From Marinobacterium sp. (GTDB lineage: Bacteria > Pseudomonadota > Gammaproteobacteria > Pseudomonadales > Balneatricaceae), in the NCBI GenBank assembly GCA_018623095.1, contig JAAZVX010000001.1:7725-71724 (forward strand): 64,000 bases of DNA, in the 5' to 3' direction. The position numbers and the translations under genes were made by a program. Positions within the stretch are counted from its first letter, which is position 1; every line of letters starts with the position of its first letter. Under the pieces are notes generated by a model. It was not told where the DNA came from and ran no database searches. It saw nothing but the letters and a program-made list of their open reading frames with translations. This document shows, piece after piece, positions 21,157 through 60,469 of the stretch.

Positions 21157-22830
21157 TTACTGACCCATCTGCTGTTTGATAAGGTCACCGATAGTCGTTG
21201 GACCAGCAGTTTCAACTTCAGCGTTCTGTACGGCTTTAAGAGCAGCTTTCTCTTCAGCTTGATCTTTCGCACGGATAGAGAAGGTGATAACGCGGTTGCG
21301 ACGATCAACACCTACAATCTTACCTTCAACGCTGTCGCCAACGTTTAGAGCAGTTGTAGCGTCTTCGATGCGCTCTGCAGCGATGTCAGATGCTTTAAGA
21401 ACAGCTTCGATACCTTCAGCAAGTTCAACAGAAGCAGCGCGTGGCTCAACTGCTGTAACAGTACCGGTAACGATTGCGCCTTTCTCGTGGCCCGCTAGGA
21501 ACTCAGAGAATGGATCGCTTTCTAGCTGTTTAACGCCAAGAGAGATACGCTCTTTCTCTGCGTCAATAGACAGGATAACTGCTTCAACTTCGTCGCCTTT
21601 CTTGTAGTCGCGAAGTGCAGCTTCAGCATCAGCTTCCCAAGTGATGTCTGACATGTGTACTAGGCCGTCTAGATCGTTGTCTAGACCAACGAAGATACCG
21701 AAGTCAGTGATCGTCTTGATTGTGCCAGATACTTTATCGCCTGCAGCGTACTGCTCAGAGAATGCAGCCCATGGGTTAGTAGTACACTGTTTGATACCCA
21801 ATGAGATACGACGACGCTCTTCATCAACGTCTAGAACCATAACTTCTACAGCATCACCAACCTGAACGATTTTAGATGGGTGGATGTTTTTGTTAGTCCA
21901 AGACATTTCAGAAACGTGTACTAGACCTTCTACACCATCTTCTAGAGATGCGAAACAGCCGTAATCAGTTAGGTTTGTAACCTTACCTGATACACGAGTA
22001 CCTGCTGGGTAACGGTTCTTGATCGCTTCCCATGGATCTTCAGATAGCTGCTTAAGACCTAGAGAGATACGACCGCTCTCTTTGTCGAATTTGATGATCT
22101 TAACGTCGATCTCATCACCTGGAGTTAGCATTTCGCTTGGGTGAGAGATACGTTTCCACGCCATGTCAGTGATGTGTAGAAGACCGTCAACGCCGCCAAG
22201 GTCGATGAACGCACCGTAGTTAGTAAGGTTTTTAACGTAACCTTTAACTGCTTGGCCTTCTTCAAGATCAGCAAGGATCTCATCGCGCTGTGCGCTGTTA
22301 GCTTCTTGAAGAACTGCGCGGCGAGAAACAACAACGTTGTTACGCTTCTGATCAAGTTTGATCAGTTTGAATTCAAGTTCTTTGCCTTCTAGGTGATCAA
22401 CGTCACGTACTGGGCGAACGTCTACCAATGAACCTGGTAGGAAGCCCTGGATGTTGTTGACGTTTACAGTGAAACCACCTTTAACTTTGCCAGAGATGTA
22501 ACCTTTTACGATCTCTTCCGCTTCAAACTTAGTCTGAAGAACTTCCCATGCTTCTGCACGTTTCGCTTTCTCGCGAGAAAGTTTAGTTTCACCGAAACCG
22601 TCTTCTACAGCTTCTAGTGCAACTTTAACGTCGTCACCAATGTTGATTTCAAGTTCATTCGCATCGTTAAGGAACTGAGAGCGTGGAATAACCGCTTCAG
22701 ACTTAAGACCAGCGTTAACAGTTACCCAATCAGCATCGATATCAACAACAGTACCAGTTACTAGGGTACCTGGAGTCATCGCAAGTTCTTGGAGGGATTC
22801 TTCAAACAGTTCAGCAAAGCTTTCGCTCAT
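21157..22830 (-). CDS. rpsA: 30S ribosomal protein S1, copy A (stand-alone locus)
   Basis: [13 protein letters not shown]-terminus, six S1 repeats ([43 protein letters not shown]), 557 aa, strong high-expression codon bias. Confidence 0.97.
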
Positions 22831-52884: not shown

Positions 52885-53964
52885 ATGAATCGTCTATTTA
52901 ACTTCAGCGCTGGACCTGCAGCGCTGCCAACTGAAGTACTGGAAATCGCCCAATCTGAAATGCTGGATTGGCATGCCAAAGGCCTCTCTATTATGGAGAT
53001 GAGCCATCGAAGCGCTGAGTTTGTGAGCGTGGCTGAAGGTGCAGAGCAGGATCTGCGTGAACTGATGAACATCGGTGACGACTACGCCGTTATGTTCCTT
53101 CAAGGGGGCGCAACCAGTCAGTTTGGTATGGTGCCCATGAACCTTTCACAAGGTGGCAAGGTCTCATACATTAATACGGGTGTTTGGTCTAAAAAGGCGA
53201 TCAAAGAGGCACAGCGTTTTGCCGATGTCTCTATCGCTGCATCGACAGAATCATCAAGCTTTAGTGAAGCACCTTTGCAGTCAGATCTCACTATTGAGCC
53301 GACGGCTAAGTACCTTCATTACACCACCAACGAAACCATTGGTGGGGTTCAATTTGACTACATTCCTGATGCGGGTAATGTGCCACTGGTTGCCGACATG
53401 TCGTCAGACATCTTATCGGCGCCGATCGATGTCTCTCGTTTTGGGTTGATCTATGCAGGAGCGCAGAAGAACATCGGTCCTGCCGGATTAACGGTTGTCA
53501 TCGCACGTAAAGATCTATTAGGAAACCCATTAAGCTCAGCGCCGACTATGTATGATTATGCTGTTCATGCGGCCAATGGTTCGATGCACAACACACCACC
53601 GACACTGGCTTGGTATCTATCGGGACTGGTGTTTCAGTGGATTAAGCGCCAAGGTGGATTGTCGGCAATGGCGGAATTGAATCATCGCAAAGCCTCTAAG
53701 CTCTATGCGGCTATTGATGGAAGTGACTTTTTTGCCAACCCAGTTGCTGTTCGCAACCGTTCCATTATGAATGTTCCCTTTACGTTGGCTGACTCCGCTC
53801 TGGACAAGGCATTCTTGGCTGAATCTGAAGAGGCGGGATTGTTGAATCTTAAAGGGCATCGCTCTGTCGGTGGTATGCGCGCAAGTATCTATAACGCCGT
53901 TCCTGAACAAGCGGTGGATGCTCTGATCGACTTTATGGCTGATTTCGAGAAGCGTCGAGGCTAA
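52885..53964 (+). CDS. serC: 3-phosphoserine/phosphohydroxythreonine aminotransferase
   Basis: FNFSAGPAALP, NETIGG, DMSS, GAQKNIGPAG, HRSVGGMRAS. Confidence 0.97.
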   Translation: MNRLFNFSAGPAALPTEVLEIAQSEMLDWHAKGLSIMEMSHRSAEFVSVAEGAEQDLRELMNIGDDYAVMFLQGGATSQFGMVPMNLSQGGKVSYINTGVWSKKAIKEAQRFADVSIAASTESSSFSEAPLQSDLTIEPTAKYLHYTTNETIGGVQFDYIPDAGNVPLVADMSSDILSAPIDVSRFGLIYAGAQKNIGPAGLTVVIARKDLLGNPLSSAPTMYDYAVHAANGSMHNTPPTLAWYLSGLVFQWIKRQGGLSAMAELNHRKASKLYAAIDGSDFFANPVAVRNRSIMNVPFTLADSALDKAFLAESEEAGLLNLKGHRSVGGMRASIYNAVPEQAVDALIDFMADFEKRRG

Positions 53965-53966
53965 TA

Positions 53967-54737
53967 ATGGGTCAGCAGAATCTCTATCAAGGGTTGACTC
54001 AAGATGAGGCACTGGCACAGGTGCGTGATGAGATCGATCAGATTGATCAAGAGATTCATTCCCTGTTAAATAAACGTGCTGAGTGCGCTCAGCGAGTCGC
54101 TGATATTAAGCACAGTTTTGGTGCTGACTCCCCCATTTTCTATCGACCTGAACGTGAGGCGCAGGTGCTTCGCAAAGCGATGCAGCGTAATGAGGGGCCG
54201 CTTCCTGATCAAGAAATTGCCCGTCTCTTCAGAGAGGTGATGTCAGTCTGTTTGGCGCATGAGCACAGAATGAATGTTGGTTTCATTCAAAGCCCAGGAT
54301 TGGATGCTGAGCAAGCCGCTCTTAAACAGTTTGGCCATTCAGTAGAGCCTATTGCGTTTCCTAAGGCGACTGAAGCGCTGCTAAGCCTTGCAGAAGAGGG
54401 GTTGCACTACGCGGTTATCTCCGTGAATTCACTCTCTGAGGTCTTGTCTCTTCTGATCACTCATCAGCTTAATGTGGTCGGTGAAGTGAATGTGCATGGC
54501 GATGAAGCCTATTTGGTACTGGGGCATCAAGCGGTTTCCGCTTCCGGAAATGATAAAACAGCTGTGATTATTGAAGGGTCTGAATCAACGGTAGCTGACT
54601 ATTCTCGTGCCCTTAGTGATGGAAACCTAACCTATTTAGAGCTTGATGGCGCAGTGTCGGTTGATGGCGTTCAATCTCTGGTTGGACCTGAGCTCAATTT
54701 TCACTACCTGGGACTCTTTCCCAAAGCGGTTTTTTAG
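53967..54737 (+). CDS. pheA: PheA-derived protein: intact chorismate mutase with an internally deleted, degenerate prephenate dehydratase/ACT region
   Basis: AroQ domain RDEIDQID..RA..K..YRPEREAQVL is intact. The PDT part is only about 160 aa and lacks the PxENS and TRF motifs. C-terminal LGxFPKAV is retained. Confidence 0.85.
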   Translation: MGQQNLYQGLTQDEALAQVRDEIDQIDQEIHSLLNKRAECAQRVADIKHSFGADSPIFYRPEREAQVLRKAMQRNEGPLPDQEIARLFREVMSVCLAHEHRMNVGFIQSPGLDAEQAALKQFGHSVEPIAFPKATEALLSLAEEGLHYAVISVNSLSEVLSLLITHQLNVVGEVNVHGDEAYLVLGHQAVSASGNDKTAVIIEGSESTVADYSRALSDGNLTYLELDGAVSVDGVQSLVGPELNFHYLGLFPKAVF

Positions 54738-54748
54738 GGAATTTAATT

Positions 54749-55849
54749 GTGACTATTGATCAAAAAACATTCGCAGTGTCGGGTGTTCAAAAGTTGACAC
54801 CTTACCAACCCGGTAAACCGATTGAAGAATTAGAGCGTGAACTGGGTATCAGTGAGTCGATTAAGCTTGCTAGTAATGAAAATCCCTTGGGCCCAAGCCC
54901 TATCGCCCTTAAAGCCGCTACCGACAGCTTGCAAGATGCGACACTCTATCCTGATGCGTCTGGCACCGAGCTCAAGCGTAGATTAAACACTGAATATGGT
55001 CTGGCAGAAGATCGTTTGACCTTGGGTAACGGATCAAATGACCTGTTGGAGTTGATCGCCAGAGTATTTGTGCGCCCCGAAGATGAGGTGATTTACTCGG
55101 AGTTCGCCTTCATCGTTTATCCGCTGGTGGCTCAAGCCTGTTGTGCGGTGTCGGTGGTAACTCCTGCGAAAGAGTATGGTCACGATTTGGATGCTATGGC
55201 TAATGCGATCACTGATAAGACGCGCCTTATCTTCCTAGCCAACCCCAACAACCCGACCGGAACAGTCTTCTCAGACGATCAGTTTCGCGCGTTTATGGCT
55301 CGTGTTCCTGAGCAGGTCATGGTGATTCTAGATGAGGCTTACACTGAGTATTTGACGGCTCAAAACATGCCAAACGGACTGCAGCTGGCTGATGAGTTCG
55401 ATAACTTAATCGTCACGCGAACCTTCTCTAAGGCTTGGGGCTTAGCTGGCCTTCGTTGCGGTTTCGCTTATGCTTCGGTAGCAGTAACCGATCTTCTTAA
55501 TCGTGTTCGCCAGCCCTTCAATGTCAGTTTGCCCGCTTTAGCGGCGGCACAGGCGGTACTGTCCGACTCTGAATACCTCAAGCGCAGCCAAGAGGTTAAC
55601 CAGCAGGGTCTTGAACAGATGTACGAAGGGCTTACTCAACTGGGTGTTTCGTTTGTACCAAGTCAGGGTAATTTTGTGCTGATCGACTTGGGACAGCCAG
55701 CCATGCCGATCTACCAGTCGATGCTATTGATGGGGGTTATTACTCGTCCAGTCGGTAACTACGGCCTCCCGAACCATCTAAGAGTCAGTATCGGCCTTGC
55801 TCATGAAAATGAGCGTTTCTTAAAAGCCTTAGCGGAGGCGATCGCTTAA
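54749..55849 (+). CDS. hisC: histidinol-phosphate / aromatic aminotransferase
   Basis: YQPGKPIEEL, KLASNENP, GNGSND, ANPNNPTG, DEAY, RTFSKAWGLAGLR. Confidence 0.95.
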   Translation: MTIDQKTFAVSGVQKLTPYQPGKPIEELERELGISESIKLASNENPLGPSPIALKAATDSLQDATLYPDASGTELKRRLNTEYGLAEDRLTLGNGSNDLLELIARVFVRPEDEVIYSEFAFIVYPLVAQACCAVSVVTPAKEYGHDLDAMANAITDKTRLIFLANPNNPTGTVFSDDQFRAFMARVPEQVMVILDEAYTEYLTAQNMPNGLQLADEFDNLIVTRTFSKAWGLAGLRCGFAYASVAVTDLLNRVRQPFNVSLPALAAAQAVLSDSEYLKRSQEVNQQGLEQMYEGLTQLGVSFVPSQGNFVLIDLGQPAMPIYQSMLLMGVITRPVGNYGLPNHLRVSIGLAHENERFLKALAEAIA

Positions 55850-58059
55850 TGGCGTTCAAAGCTGAACGTGTTTTAGTCGTCGGACTGGGTCTGATTGGCG
55901 GCTCTTTTGCACGTGCAGCAAAAGAGTTGGTCAGCGTTAAGCAGGTGGTTGGCTTTGATCTCAACGAGGAAGAGTGTGATCTGGCGGTTGCTCTTAACGT
56001 GGTCGATCGTATCGCAACCGATCTAGAGGTGGCGGTCAAAGAGTCTGATCTAATTCTATTAGCCGTTCCCGTCAAAGCGATAGAGAGAGTGATGCAACAG
56101 ATCGCTCCATGGCTAAAGCCTGAAGCGATACTAACCGACGTTGGCAGTACCAAACTCAATATCCTTCAGGCAGCAAAAGGTATTTGGCCTGAAGGACTAC
56201 CAGCTGGGTTTATACCTGGCCACCCAATAGCGGGTGCTGAGAAGAGCGGTGTCTCGGCATCGCAGGCGGATCTTTTTAATCATAAAAAAGTTATTTTGAC
56301 GCCCCCCGAGGGAGCCTCTGATCAGGCTACATTGACGTTGGCTCGTGTCTGGCAGTCGATTGGTGCTGAAGTGGTTCAAATGGAACCTAAGCGCCATGAT
56401 CAGGTATTAGCGGCAACCAGTCATCTACCTCATCTATTAGCCTTCTCGCTAGTCGATACGCTCGCGGCGGAGGCAGAGAGTACTGATATATTTCGCTATG
56501 CGGCGGGCGGTTTTAGAGACTTCACCCGCATTGCGGCAAGTGATCCAACCATGTGGCATGACGTCTGTTTCGCCAATCGTGAACAGCTGTTAGAGCAGAT
56601 TGATCGCTTTATGGCGGGCGTACAAGATTTAAGATCAGCCGTCGATCAGGGCGATAGCCAGAGTCTGTTGGGGATTTTTACTCGAGCTAAGGCATCTCGT
56701 GAGCATTTCTCATTGGTACTAGAGCGTGCTGGGTATGCGGAGCTCAGGGGCGACGCCATTGATACTCTTGTTTCATCTCCAACGGCTACTTTGAACGGTG
56801 AATTGCGAGTGCCCGGTGATCGCTCTATCTCGCAACGTGCCATCATGTTAGCGGCTATTGCTGAGGGTGTGTCTGAAATTGATGGCCTGATTGAGAGTGA
56901 AGATACTCTAGCAACCATTCAAATTTTTCGTGATATGGGCGTGGTAATAGAGGGACCGCACCAGGGGCGCGTTAGGGTATTTGGTGTCGGCCTAAACGGG
57001 CTGCAAGCCCCGTCTGCGCCTCTCTATTTTGGTAGTTCGATGACCTCATTGCGAATGTTGTTAGGTCTTCTGTCCGCTCAGTCTTTTGATGTGACGTTAA
57101 CCGGCAGTGAGCTGCTGTCTAAGATCACTTTACAGGAGATTATTGACCCTCTTACTCAGATGGGCGCTTCCATTGAGAGTAATAAAGGATCGCTTCCGAT
57201 CACTATCAAGGGCGGCCAAACCTTTAAGTCCATCACCTATGCGCCGAGTCATGCCAGTGCTCAGATAAAAGGCGCATTGCTGCTGGCAGCCATGACTGCG
57301 GGCATTGAGTTAGAGGTCTATGAACCCAACACTACGCGTGATCATACTGAGCGACTGTTGGCTGCCTTCGGGGTTCAGTTGGATAGAGAGGGACGTCGAC
57401 TGTTTATCGAGTCAGGTGTTTCGCTAACAGCCTGTTCAGTTCAAGTGCCCGCCGATCTGAGTTTTGCTTTTGCGTTTGCGGTAGGGGCTCTTTTGCAAAA
57501 AGAGTCCAATTTGATTATCGATAATGTCAGTGCTAATCCCACTCGTTTGCACTCGTTGCGCCTGCTTGAACGCATGGGTGCGCAGATAACGCTGAATAAT
57601 AATCGCCATGCTGGTGGTGAGCCAGTTGCTGATCTCAAGGTGAAAGCGTCGGAGCTATTGGGTATTGAGTGCCTATCATCGGAGTTGGTCTCGGTTGGAG
57701 ATGATCTTCCGCTTCTGTTGTTGGCGATGGTATCTGCTCAGAGTGAATCGACTATTTTAGGAATCGATCGAATTCCTGAGCGACAAAGGGCCCTATTTAA
57801 GACGACGGTTGATGAATTAATAAAAGCCGGTGCCGACATCTCAATGTCACAGAGTGATGTCACTATTTCGCCGGTTTCGCAGTGGCACTCGTGTGAGTTA
57901 GAGGCCGCAGAACACCCTGCACTGGCGTTAGCTCTGCTGATGTTAAGTTTACGTTTTGATCAGCCCATTCGAATTAACGGATGTCGAGCGATCATTACCG
58001 CCTTTCCTGAACTGATTGATCAGGCGCGAAGGGTCGGTATTAAATTGATTGAGGAGTAG
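55849..58059 (+). CDS. TyrA-AroA fusion: intact prephenate dehydrogenase plus degenerate EPSP synthase domain
   Basis: TyrA motifs are intact (GLGLIGGS, GHPIAGAEKSG, SHLPH, GGFRDFTRIAASDP). The AroA scaffold is recognisable but catalytic motifs are altered (PGDRS, GSSMT, SKITL, EHP). Confidence 0.88.
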   Translation: MAFKAERVLVVGLGLIGGSFARAAKELVSVKQVVGFDLNEEECDLAVALNVVDRIATDLEVAVKESDLILLAVPVKAIERVMQQIAPWLKPEAILTDVGSTKLNILQAAKGIWPEGLPAGFIPGHPIAGAEKSGVSASQADLFNHKKVILTPPEGASDQATLTLARVWQSIGAEVVQMEPKRHDQVLAATSHLPHLLAFSLVDTLAAEAESTDIFRYAAGGFRDFTRIAASDPTMWHDVCFANREQLLEQIDRFMAGVQDLRSAVDQGDSQSLLGIFTRAKASREHFSLVLERAGYAELRGDAIDTLVSSPTATLNGELRVPGDRSISQRAIMLAAIAEGVSEIDGLIESEDTLATIQIFRDMGVVIEGPHQGRVRVFGVGLNGLQAPSAPLYFGSSMTSLRMLLGLLSAQSFDVTLTGSELLSKITLQEIIDPLTQMGASIESNKGSLPITIKGGQTFKSITYAPSHASAQIKGALLLAAMTAGIELEVYEPNTTRDHTERLLAAFGVQLDREGRRLFIESGVSLTACSVQVPADLSFAFAFAVGALLQKESNLIIDNVSANPTRLHSLRLLERMGAQITLNNNRHAGGEPVADLKVKASELLGIECLSSELVSVGDDLPLLLLAMVSAQSESTILGIDRIPERQRALFKTTVDELIKAGADISMSQSDVTISPVSQWHSCELEAAEHPALALALLMLSLRFDQPIRINGCRAIITAFPELIDQARRVGIKLIEE

Positions 58060-58062
58060 TGG

Positions 58063-58764
58063 ATGGATCCACTCAATAGTGAAAATTCATGTCCTATTAT
58101 TACCGTTGATGGGCCAAGCGGTTCGGGTAAAGGCACTATCTGTCGTTTACTTTCTCAAGAGCTAGGTTGGAGCTTGTTGGACAGCGGTGCTCTTTACCGT
58201 CTTACGGCGTTAGCTGCGATACACCATGGTGTCGATCTTAATGATGAAGAGGCGCTTCAGGTTTTGGCTGAGCATCTCGATGTGCGCTTTGTCGCGTCAG
58301 AACAGGACGATGAAGTGGTCATTTTGCTCGAAGGTGAAGAGGTGACTCATGCCATTCGAGCTGAGCAGGTTGGTAACGATGCATCCAAAGTGGCTGCTAT
58401 TTCGTCAGTCCGCTCTGCTCTGTTAAATCGCCAGCGCGATTTTGCGCAGTTACCCGGGTTAGTTGCTGATGGCAGAGATATGGGGACTGTCGTATTTCCA
58501 AAGGCACCTTTGAAGATCTATCTAGATGCTTCCGCTGAAGTTCGAGCCGATCGTCGTTATAAGCAGTTGATAGATAAGGGACTGAGTGCTAGCCTTGAAA
58601 TAATATTAGAAGATATTCGTGCACGAGATGATCGTGATATGAACCGTTCGGTTGCGCCGCTTCGACCAGCCGATGATGCCGTTATTCTTGATAGTACTTC
58701 TATGTCTATCGAAGAAGTTTTGAGAACTGTGCTTGAACAAGCACGCCACAAAGGGTTGCGTTAG
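58063..58764 (+). CDS. cmk: cytidylate kinase
   Basis: [34 protein letters not shown]. Confidence 0.97.
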
Positions 58765-58789: not shown

Positions 58790-60469
58790 ATGAGCGAAAG
58801 CTTTGCAGATCTGTTTGAAGAGAGTCTTGAACAGGTCAACATGAAACCAGGTTCCATCATTACTGGAACCGTAGTAGGTATTGAAAACGATTTTGTTGTT
58901 GTTACAGCAGGTCTTAAGTCAGATGGGGTCATTCCTATCGATCAGTTTAAAAATGCTGCAGGTGAACTAGAGGTCGCTGTCGGTGATGAGGTGCAAGTGG
59001 CACTTGAATCATTGGAAGATGGTTTCGGTGAAACCAAGTTATCTCGTGAGCGTGCGAAACGTGCAGAGGCATGGGCGGTTCTTGCAAAAGCTTACGAAGC
59101 TGGCGAAACAGTGACCGGTCGTATCAGTGGTCGTGTTCGAGGTGGTCTAACGGTCATGGTAAATGGCATAAACGCCTTCTTACCAGGTTCTTTGGTGGAT
59201 ACACGCCCACTGCGCGACACTAGTCATCTTGATGATCAAGACCTAGAGCTTAAAATCGTTAAGCTCGATGAGAAAAGTAACAACATTGTTGTGTCACGTC
59301 GTGCCATTCTTGAAGAGGCGAACAGCGAAGAGCGTGAGAAGCTGCTTGAACAGATGGAAGAGGGTGCAACCTTTAAAGGCGTTGTTAAGAACCTTACCGA
59401 TTACGGTGCTTTCATCGATCTAGGTGGTATCGATGGTCTCCTTCATATTACTGATATCTCTTGGAAACGTATCAAACACCCAAGCGAAATGCTGACTGTG
59501 GGTGATGAGATCGACGTTAAAGTTCTTCGCTACGATCAAGAGCGTAAGCGCGTATCCCTAGGCATGAAGCAGCTAGCGGCTGATCCATGGACGACAGCAA
59601 TCGAGAACTATTCAGTTGGTCAACGCGTTATGGCTAAGGTGACTAAGCTTGCTGACTACGGCTGTTTTGCTCAAATTGGTGAGGGTGTTGAAGGTCTAGT
59701 CCATGTCTCTGAAATGGATTGGACAAATCGCAACATTCATCCATCTAAGGTGGTTCAGGTTGGTGATGAAGTTGAAGTTCAGATTCTAGACATTGATCAA
59801 CAACGTCGTCGTATCTCGCTGGGTATCAAACAGTGTCGCGAAAACCCATGGAATGCTTTTGCATCTTCAACGAACAAGGGTGACAAAGTGTCTGGTACTG
59901 TCCGCTCAATCACAGACTTCGGTATCTTCATCGGTTTAGAGGGTGGTGTTGATGGTCTTGTGCATCTGTCTGATATCTCTTGGGATGAGCCAGGTGAAGA
60001 GGCTGTTAAGCGTTTCAATAAAGGCGATATCGTGGAAGCGGTCATCCAACAAGTGGATGCTGAGCGCGAACGTATCTCTTTAAGCATTAAAGCACTGGCC
60101 TCTGATCCATTCAGTAGCTTTGTAGAAGCGAACGGTAAGGGTTCAAAAGTTTCCGGTACAGTTGTCGCAGTGGATGCTCGTCAGGCTGAAATTGAAGTGG
60201 CTGATGGTCTGAACGCTATTTTGAAAGTGGCTGAGTTTGCCCGTGAGCGAACTGAAGATCTCTCGGCAGAGCTCTCTGTAGGTGACAGCGTTGAAGCGAT
60301 TGTGATCAATGTTGATCGTCGTAATCGTTCGATCTTCTTGTCAATCAAAGCGATTGAAGCCAAAGAGCAGCAAGAGGCACTTAAAGCGGTTCAGTCAGCT
60401 CCAAGCGATATGGATGCAGGCGCAACAACCATTGGTGATCTCATCAAAGAGCAGATGGGTAAAAAATAG
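58790..60469 (+). CDS. rpsA: 30S ribosomal protein S1, copy B (canonical cmk-rpsA-ihfB locus)
   Basis: [12 protein letters not shown], six S1 repeats, 559 aa, intact ORF; only 25 nt downstream of cmk. Confidence 0.96.

Follow-up and report, generated by a model that had tools for sequence, protein, structure and literature searches.

The tyrA-aroA fusion gene analysed here lies in a 64,000-nucleotide stretch of Marinobacterium sp. DNA (the window; G000:C15:7725-71724, where G000 denotes the source metagenome-assembled genome of 1.55 Mb in 148 contigs), and encodes a prephenate/cyclohexadienyl dehydrogenase (TyrA) followed by a C-terminal domain related to 5-enolpyruvylshikimate-3-phosphate (EPSP) synthase (AroA). 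This fused domain is probably a catalytically dead EPSP synthase that is kept as a folded passenger of TyrA, while a separate class-I aroA gene supplies the enzymatic activity. It is of full length, its phosphoenolpyruvate (PEP)-binding and catalytic residues are replaced, and it was shown to be under purifying selection.

Replaced active-site residues in a full-length domain

The original prediction, which was made from the sequence alone, described an intact TyrA half and an EPSP synthase domain of full length with altered substrate-binding motifs. The motif changes (PGDRS, GSSMT, SKITL, DLSFA, RIPERQRAL and AEHP) and their coordinates were all found to be correct, and the motifs described as retained (RDHTER, NPTR and GGEPVAD) are present. 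The fusion open reading frame (ORF) is free of stop codons and frameshifts, confirming that the domain is complete and open.

To assign residues, the domain was aligned using HMMER with the solved EPSP synthase of Acinetobacter baumannii (5bs5/5buf, E = 9e-95), and using MAFFT with Escherichia coli AroA and 26 fused orthologues of relatives, 13 of which are functional; E. coli numbering is used throughout. The 432 residues of the domain align end to end with 5bs5, and the comparison with the solved structure confirmed the replacement of the PEP-binding/catalytic residues (K22R, G96M, R124I, KESDR and DHR; Table 1). Nothing matching K340/E341/R344 or H385/R386 was found in the domain in the alignments with 5bs5, E. 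coli AroA and the orthologues. The PEP-binding or catalytic roles of K22, G96, R124, K340, E341, R344, H385 and R386 are assumed here from the literature on structure 1G6S. These residue roles are partly echoed in PMC10305266. Residues S23, R27, T97, R100, S170, Q171 and D313 were kept, and those that bind shikimate 3-phosphate (S3P), i.e. S23, R27, S170/Q171 and D313, are all present and invariant in the genus. The domain scored 251 bits against TIGR01356, below the equivalog cut-off of 287.25, compared with 400-431 bits for functional fused domains. Judged by its residues, the fused domain would be devoid of EPSP synthase activity.

The losses are shared by nine genomes of the genus and 21 metagenome clusters, in all of which K22 is replaced by Arg, R124 is replaced by I, L, Q, Y or H, and the KESDR and DHR motifs are missing. 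These 21 clusters of the genus type were retrieved by searching 5.8 billion proteins; their domains show 51-91% identity, and all encode proteins of 734-736 aa. Close relatives have M, I, S, A, D or V at position 96, and such differences among them at catalytic positions indicate that these positions are no longer constrained. Across the 156 columns that are invariant in functional fused domains, mean retention in the degenerate copies, weighted by genus, was 72%, whereas only 30% of the PEP/catalytic positions were retained (P = 1e-4, resampling), indicative of a targeted loss that exceeds chance drift.

The TyrA half was intact, as had been proposed. Pfam matches to PDH_N (residues 20-176, 128.6 bits) and PDH_C (residues 180-277, 98.6 bits) were followed by one to EPSP_synthase (PF00275, residues 312-724, 245 bits), and the TyrA motifs GLGLIGGS (GxGxxG), GHPIAG, SHLPH and GGFRDFTR were invariant across 40 homologues. 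The architecture, with an N-terminal TyrA and a C-terminal EPSP synthase domain encoded in a hisC-tyrA/aroA-cmk operon, is that of NCBIfam NF011381 (bifunctional TyrA/EPSP synthase), against which the protein scored 853.9 bits, below the curated cut-off of 902.

Protein structure prediction using AlphaFold2 on a 40-sequence alignment gave a mean predicted local distance difference test (pLDDT) score of 87.9, with values of 85-95 throughout residues 305-736, and the dead domain is predicted to keep the EPSP synthase fold. In Foldseek comparisons, this domain of the model matched the A. baumannii EPSP synthase 5bs5/5buf (TM-score 0.90-0.91, root-mean-square deviation 2.3-2.5 Å), and the N-terminal half matched the TyrA structures of Aquifex and Sinorhizobium (TM-score 0.89-0.92). 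The relative placement of the two halves was uncertain (predicted TM-score, pTM, 0.61), and no confident packing between TyrA and AroA was found in the model, in which they are joined by a disordered linker (residues 292-301).

Fused and stand-alone aroA genes among relatives

A whole-genome Pfam search of G000 identified three PF00275 genes, namely those encoding the fused domain, MurA (on contig C111) and, at the start of contig C123, a stand-alone AroA of class I (E. coli type). The class-I product has intact motifs (LPGSKS, GNAGTAMRPL, RMYERPI and SSQFLTALL), and shares 63% identity with E. coli AroA and 97% with the complete copy of G004 (Marinobacterium sp. xm-d-530), the closest named genome, whose fusion protein is 91% identical to that of the window. 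All eight genus genomes carry class-I aroA, and the single-contig genome G001 has both genes on one chromosome. The suggestion that chorismate is made through another aroA thus stood, and the scavenging that had been offered as an alternative is not needed.

Further genes of the aromatic pathway were sought in G000. While aroB, aroK and aroE are present, aroC and a DAHP synthase gene were not found there using E. coli queries and TIGR00033. Because aroC is present in three genus genomes, its absence from G000 most likely reflects an assembly gap and not a loss of the pathway, which is very probably complete. The completeness of G000 was estimated at 90%, which may be optimistic, and genus relatives have genomes of 2.0-3.4 Mb.

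To relate the state of the fused domain to the presence of a second gene, 40 genomes besides G000 were considered, and 27 fused domains were compared residue by residue. Fourteen of the 27 were degenerate, and class-I aroA was also present in all 14 of the corresponding genomes. Conversely, each of the ten fused domains from genomes without class-I aroA keeps every catalytic residue (K22, S23, R27, N94, G96, T97, R100, R124, S170, Q171 and D313, as well as K340, E341, R344, H385 and R386). In three genomes (G018, G020 and G035), the fused domain and class-I aroA are both intact. Within the genus, the stand-alone class-I aroA of eight genomes scored 453-482 bits and the fused domain only 210-267 bits, as opposed to 404-431 bits for the fused domain in fusion-only genomes of the family. 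A survey of 111 genomes from 16 genera revealed a graded series of fused-domain scores (approximately 430, 400, 355, 320, 300 and 250 bits), in which a low score tracks the presence of class-I aroA, genus by genus.

The degenerate state occupies at least four places on the TyrA-domain tree (genus g1 together with g4 and g5; G010; G014; and G023), with G014 and G023 each neighbouring a lineage with an intact domain, and it seems that four or more lineages have undergone degeneration. The subsets of catalytic residues that were lost differ between genera. In genus g10, tyrA stands alone and is directly followed by cmk and rpsA at three loci (L075, L076 and L077, in G084, G017 and G047, respectively), where it forms an open frame of 333-355 codons with a short non-homologous tail; in the congeners G060 and G073, a fused domain persists in heavily degenerate form. 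The clean deletion of the AroA domain in these three g10 genomes is the end point of the series. At one further locus (L073, G123:C1:1043481-1045652), the fused gene lies in a stop-to-stop frame of 1077 codons, compared with the usual ~750, a length that may come simply from a frame open upstream in this high-GC genome, and not from an additional fusion.

Selection on the dead domain and its possible roles

Ratios of non-synonymous to synonymous substitution rates (dN/dS) were calculated by the Nei-Gojobori method for close pairs with unsaturated dS only, as many within-genus dS values were saturated. Because high-GC genera give a low proportion of synonymous differences through codon bias, the two domains were compared within the same gene. 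For the pair G000-G004, dN/dS was 0.053 for the AroA-like domain and 0.035 for the TyrA domain, with 0.035 for hisC, 0.055 for cmk, 0.034 for the chorismate mutase part of pheA, 0.154 for the prephenate dehydratase (PDT) remnant of pheA and 0.018 for class-I aroA. The corresponding values for the pair G006-G008 were 0.048 (AroA-like domain) and 0.021 (TyrA domain), and close pairs in genera g3, g4 and g5 gave 0.06-0.11 for the dead domain versus 0.02-0.05 for TyrA, with all ORFs open. The domain is therefore under selection and not decaying, as originally proposed; about 30 diverged copies of the genus type are all open and full length (734-736 aa), and the neutral decay with frequent stop codons that had been named as the contrary outcome was not seen.

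The protein-level change of the AroA domain relative to TyrA was 0.69x in functional fusions and 1.6x in degenerate fusions, indicating that constraint has been relaxed roughly 2.4-fold, although it is still strong. The stem leading to the genus measured 1.65 substitutions per site in the AroA-domain tree, compared with 0.29 for TyrA. Twenty-one genus-fixed differences were identified in the domain, mostly conservative and scattered, and some Arg residues are newly invariant in the genus.

These patterns can be accommodated by the following scheme. Once a second aroA is present, the fused domain would cease to be selected for catalysis, and its PEP-binding and catalytic residues would then be replaced. 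As the domain is still covalently linked to TyrA, which is essential, changes that unfold, destabilize or truncate it would harm the whole protein and be selected against. Selection would in this way keep a well-folded, EPSP synthase-shaped passenger, the catalytic positions of which drift, and removal would be possible only by a clean in-frame deletion. The targeted pattern of loss, the variable former pocket and the lineages with a deletion argue for fold maintenance for TyrA, and not a new ligand-binding role, as the selected property.

Several observations weigh against this scheme. The dN/dS of 0.05 is as low as that of the working housekeeping enzymes in the operon, which is arguably stricter than a mere passenger would lead one to expect and leaves room for a positive function. 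The residues on the S3P side of the cleft (S23, R27, S170, Q171 and D313) persist in nearly every degenerate lineage, which would fit retained ligand binding, although this retention does not significantly exceed background (P = 0.076). Furthermore, K22R alone is tolerated in plant EPSP synthase. Finally, the class-I aroA of G000 is assembled for its first ~300 residues only, with C123 ending within the gene, and its C-terminal third was not found in the rest of the G000 assembly by tblastn, so that the full-length copy of G004 and the other genus genomes were used in its place; given this cut gene, the missing aroC and the possibly optimistic completeness estimate, absences in G000 should not be over-read.

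As the main alternative, it is conceivable, if doubtful, that the dead domain is instead a ligand-binding regulatory module, which binds S3P or a related anion at the kept S3P side of the cleft and modulates TyrA or reports pathway flux. Residues S23, R27, R100, S170, Q171 and D313 remain in place in almost every degenerate lineage, representing at least five genera, while the PEP side is lost; the replacement of K22 by Arg is recurrent and keeps the charge; dN/dS matches the low values of genuine enzymes; and the long stem was followed by tighter constraint within the genus. The same idea was raised for the remnant of this fusion in Pseudomonas syringae (Song et al. 2005, PMC1173090). However, retention of the S3P-side positions (87%) was not significantly above background (P = 0.076, resampling; lobe mean 0.82), and a sensor was for that reason not made the main explanation. 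In addition, the former pocket position G96 varies freely in close relatives and K340 is gone, the whole domain is deleted in some relatives, the model contains no confident contact with TyrA, and the 21 fixed differences are mostly conservative. A more specific version, according to which the half-site of S23, R27, S170, Q171 and D313 still binds S3P or a related anion and acts as a built-in sensor that tunes TyrA, recycled repeatedly within one family, is somewhat less likely again. The suggestion that the domain serves as a scaffold for TyrA is likewise tempered by its clean deletion in the three g10 genomes and by the lack of confident packing in the AlphaFold2 model.

It is improbable that the domain has gained a catalytic function of a new kind, unconnected with enolpyruvyl transfer. 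The burst of change followed by conservation, the 21 fixed differences and the newly invariant Arg residues are compatible with such a gain, but no new conserved catalytic constellation or polar cluster in the cleft was evident among these mostly conservative and scattered differences, the former pocket residues vary, and the substitutions differ between genera. It is even more improbable that the domain continues to work as an EPSP synthase, with an atypical active site, and that the genome simply encodes two isozymes. Such a role could be read from its full length, confidently predicted fold, strong purifying selection and kept D313, R27, S23 and Q171, as well as from the two intact copies in G018, G020 and G035; yet R124, K340/E341/R344 and R386 are all lost, position 96 carries a bulky Met or Ile, the variation of these positions in close relatives is incompatible with a conserved catalytic site, the score falls under the equivalog cut-off, and every single-copy genome keeps all these residues. 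Least likely of all is a pseudogene in progress, in neutral decay before its first stop codon, for although catalytic residues are lost, the domain outpaces TyrA 2-5x (functional domains, 0.7x), it is deleted in one genus and the neighbouring PDT domain of pheA is truncated, dN/dS is 0.05-0.11 at dS ~1, structural invariants are retained, and ~50 independent copies in five genera, many pairs of which are synonymously saturated, are all open and full length.

Known systems and genomic context

Fusion of TyrA with a disabled EPSP synthase domain has its closest precedent in the TyrA-AroF (EPSP synthase) protein of P. syringae, whose EPSP synthase domain has lost ~200 residues (Song, Bonner, Wolinsky and Jensen 2005, BMC Biol 3:13; PMC1173090). 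In that study, the deletion was tied to a laterally acquired stand-alone aroF, and the remnant was speculated to become a regulatory domain. The displacement logic is therefore already known: in both cases, the same fusion is located in a serC-pheA-hisC-tyrA/aroA-cmk-rpsA supraoperon, and a stand-alone gene takes over while TyrA is kept. In contrast to P. syringae, the Marinobacterium domain is of full length, with point replacements and measurable purifying selection; the replacing gene is of class I (E. coli type), as opposed to the CP4-like class-II gene of P. syringae; and the phenomenon has occurred repeatedly across several genera of one marine family, where all stages from intact to deleted are visible. 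Full-text literature searches yielded only the truncated P. syringae case and no account of a dead EPSP synthase domain of full length. New here are the full-length retention with point-mutated catalytic residues, the quantified purifying selection, the class-I replacer and the recurrence within one marine family.

The domain resembles the functional TyrA/EPSP synthases of Pseudomonas and Acinetobacter (NF011381; 5bs5/5buf) in architecture, operon position and fold (TM-score 0.90, 38-39% identity), but differs from them in that PEP-binding/catalytic residues are absent, scores lie below the cut-offs and it is not the sole aroA in the genome. With its catalytic residues gone, under purifying selection and accompanied by an active counterpart (class-I aroA) in the same genome, it has the hallmarks of a pseudoenzyme. 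Like the trypanosome AdoMetDC 'prozyme', a dead paralogue (PMC5201418), it is related to an active enzyme, lacks catalytic residues itself and is retained under purifying selection; unlike prozyme-type cases, for which a regulatory mechanism has been demonstrated, it is known from sequence and is deletable in some relatives.

These genomes provide an unusually complete natural series for the fate of a fused enzyme domain once another gene takes over its job, comprising domains that are intact without a second copy, intact with a second copy, point-mutated at full length under selection, and cleanly deleted. They also represent a tractable system in which to ask why dead domains persist, be it through a burden on the folding of the fused partner or a new regulatory use, with a cultured isolate at hand (Marinobacterium sp. 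xm-d-530). Relatives are labelled 'bifunctional prephenate dehydrogenase/EPSP synthase' in databases, although the second of these activities is very probably absent from the degenerate ones; such organisms would be miscounted when glyphosate sensitivity or pathway gene counts are predicted from genomes.

Table 1. Coordinates in the window of the tyrA-aroA fusion, its domains and motifs, and the neighbouring genes
Feature	Position	Strand	Remarks
tyrA-aroA fusion ORF	55849-58059	+	736 aa
TyrA (prephenate/cyclohexadienyl dehydrogenase) domain	55849-56721	+	Residues 1-291; motifs intact
Interdomain linker	56722-56751	+	Residues 292-301; predicted disordered, pLDDT <50
EPSP-synthase-fold domain, class-II-type origin	56761-58056	+	Residues 305-736; catalytic residues lost
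PGDRS	56812-56826	+	PGDKS in 5bs5; K22R; S23 kept, R27 kept just downstream
GSSMT	57031-57045	+	GNSGTSMR in 5bs5, here GSSMTSLR; N94S, G96M; T97 kept
SKITL	57118-57132	+	SKRPMER in 5bs5, here SKITLQE; R124I; RPM of SKRPM lost
DLSFA	57454-57468	+	DISSA in 5bs5
RIPERQRAL	57769-57795	+	In place of the LRVKESDRI motif (K340/E341/R344); LRVKESDRI in 5bs5, here DRIPERQRA
AEHP	57907-57918	+	In place of GDHR; R386P; HDHRIAM in 5bs5, here AEHPALA
serC	about 52885-53961
pheA	53967-54737	+	Intact chorismate mutase domain and truncated, degenerate PDT remnant
hisC (aminotransferase)	54749-55849	+	Operon neighbour upstream of the fusion
cmk	58063-58764	+	Operon neighbour downstream of the fusion
rpsA	58790-60469	+

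The locus is a classical supraoperon with the order serC, pheA, hisC, tyrA-aroA fusion, cmk and rpsA (Table 1), in which the stop codon of hisC overlaps the ATG of the fusion (TAATG). The product of pheA is only 256 aa long; its chorismate mutase domain is intact (PF01817, 80.7 bits), and its PDT remnant matches profile positions 12-79 of PF00800 only (19.9 bits versus a cut-off of 25.2) and is not followed by an ACT domain. A stand-alone PDT-ACT gene is located elsewhere in G000 (C41:1126-1998), and two PDT genes were found in every family genome sampled. In most of the genus, though not in G002, and in G012, G013 and G017, the copy in the operon has degenerated or been truncated. The PDT remnant of pheA is a second, parallel displacement in the same operon, here with truncation.

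On contig C123, class-I aroA adjoins a putative sulfur-oxidation cluster (C123:1428-15323), which by-eye reading of the translations suggests to include candidates for a SoxB-like 5'-nucleotidase-fold protein, cytochromes, SoxY/Z-like ORFs and a sulfite-dehydrogenase-like molybdoenzyme. The window furthermore contains a second gene for ribosomal protein S1 (rpsA), located at 21160-22830 on the reverse strand in addition to the supraoperon copy on the forward strand, and the protein encoded by this second copy is 62% identical over its full length.

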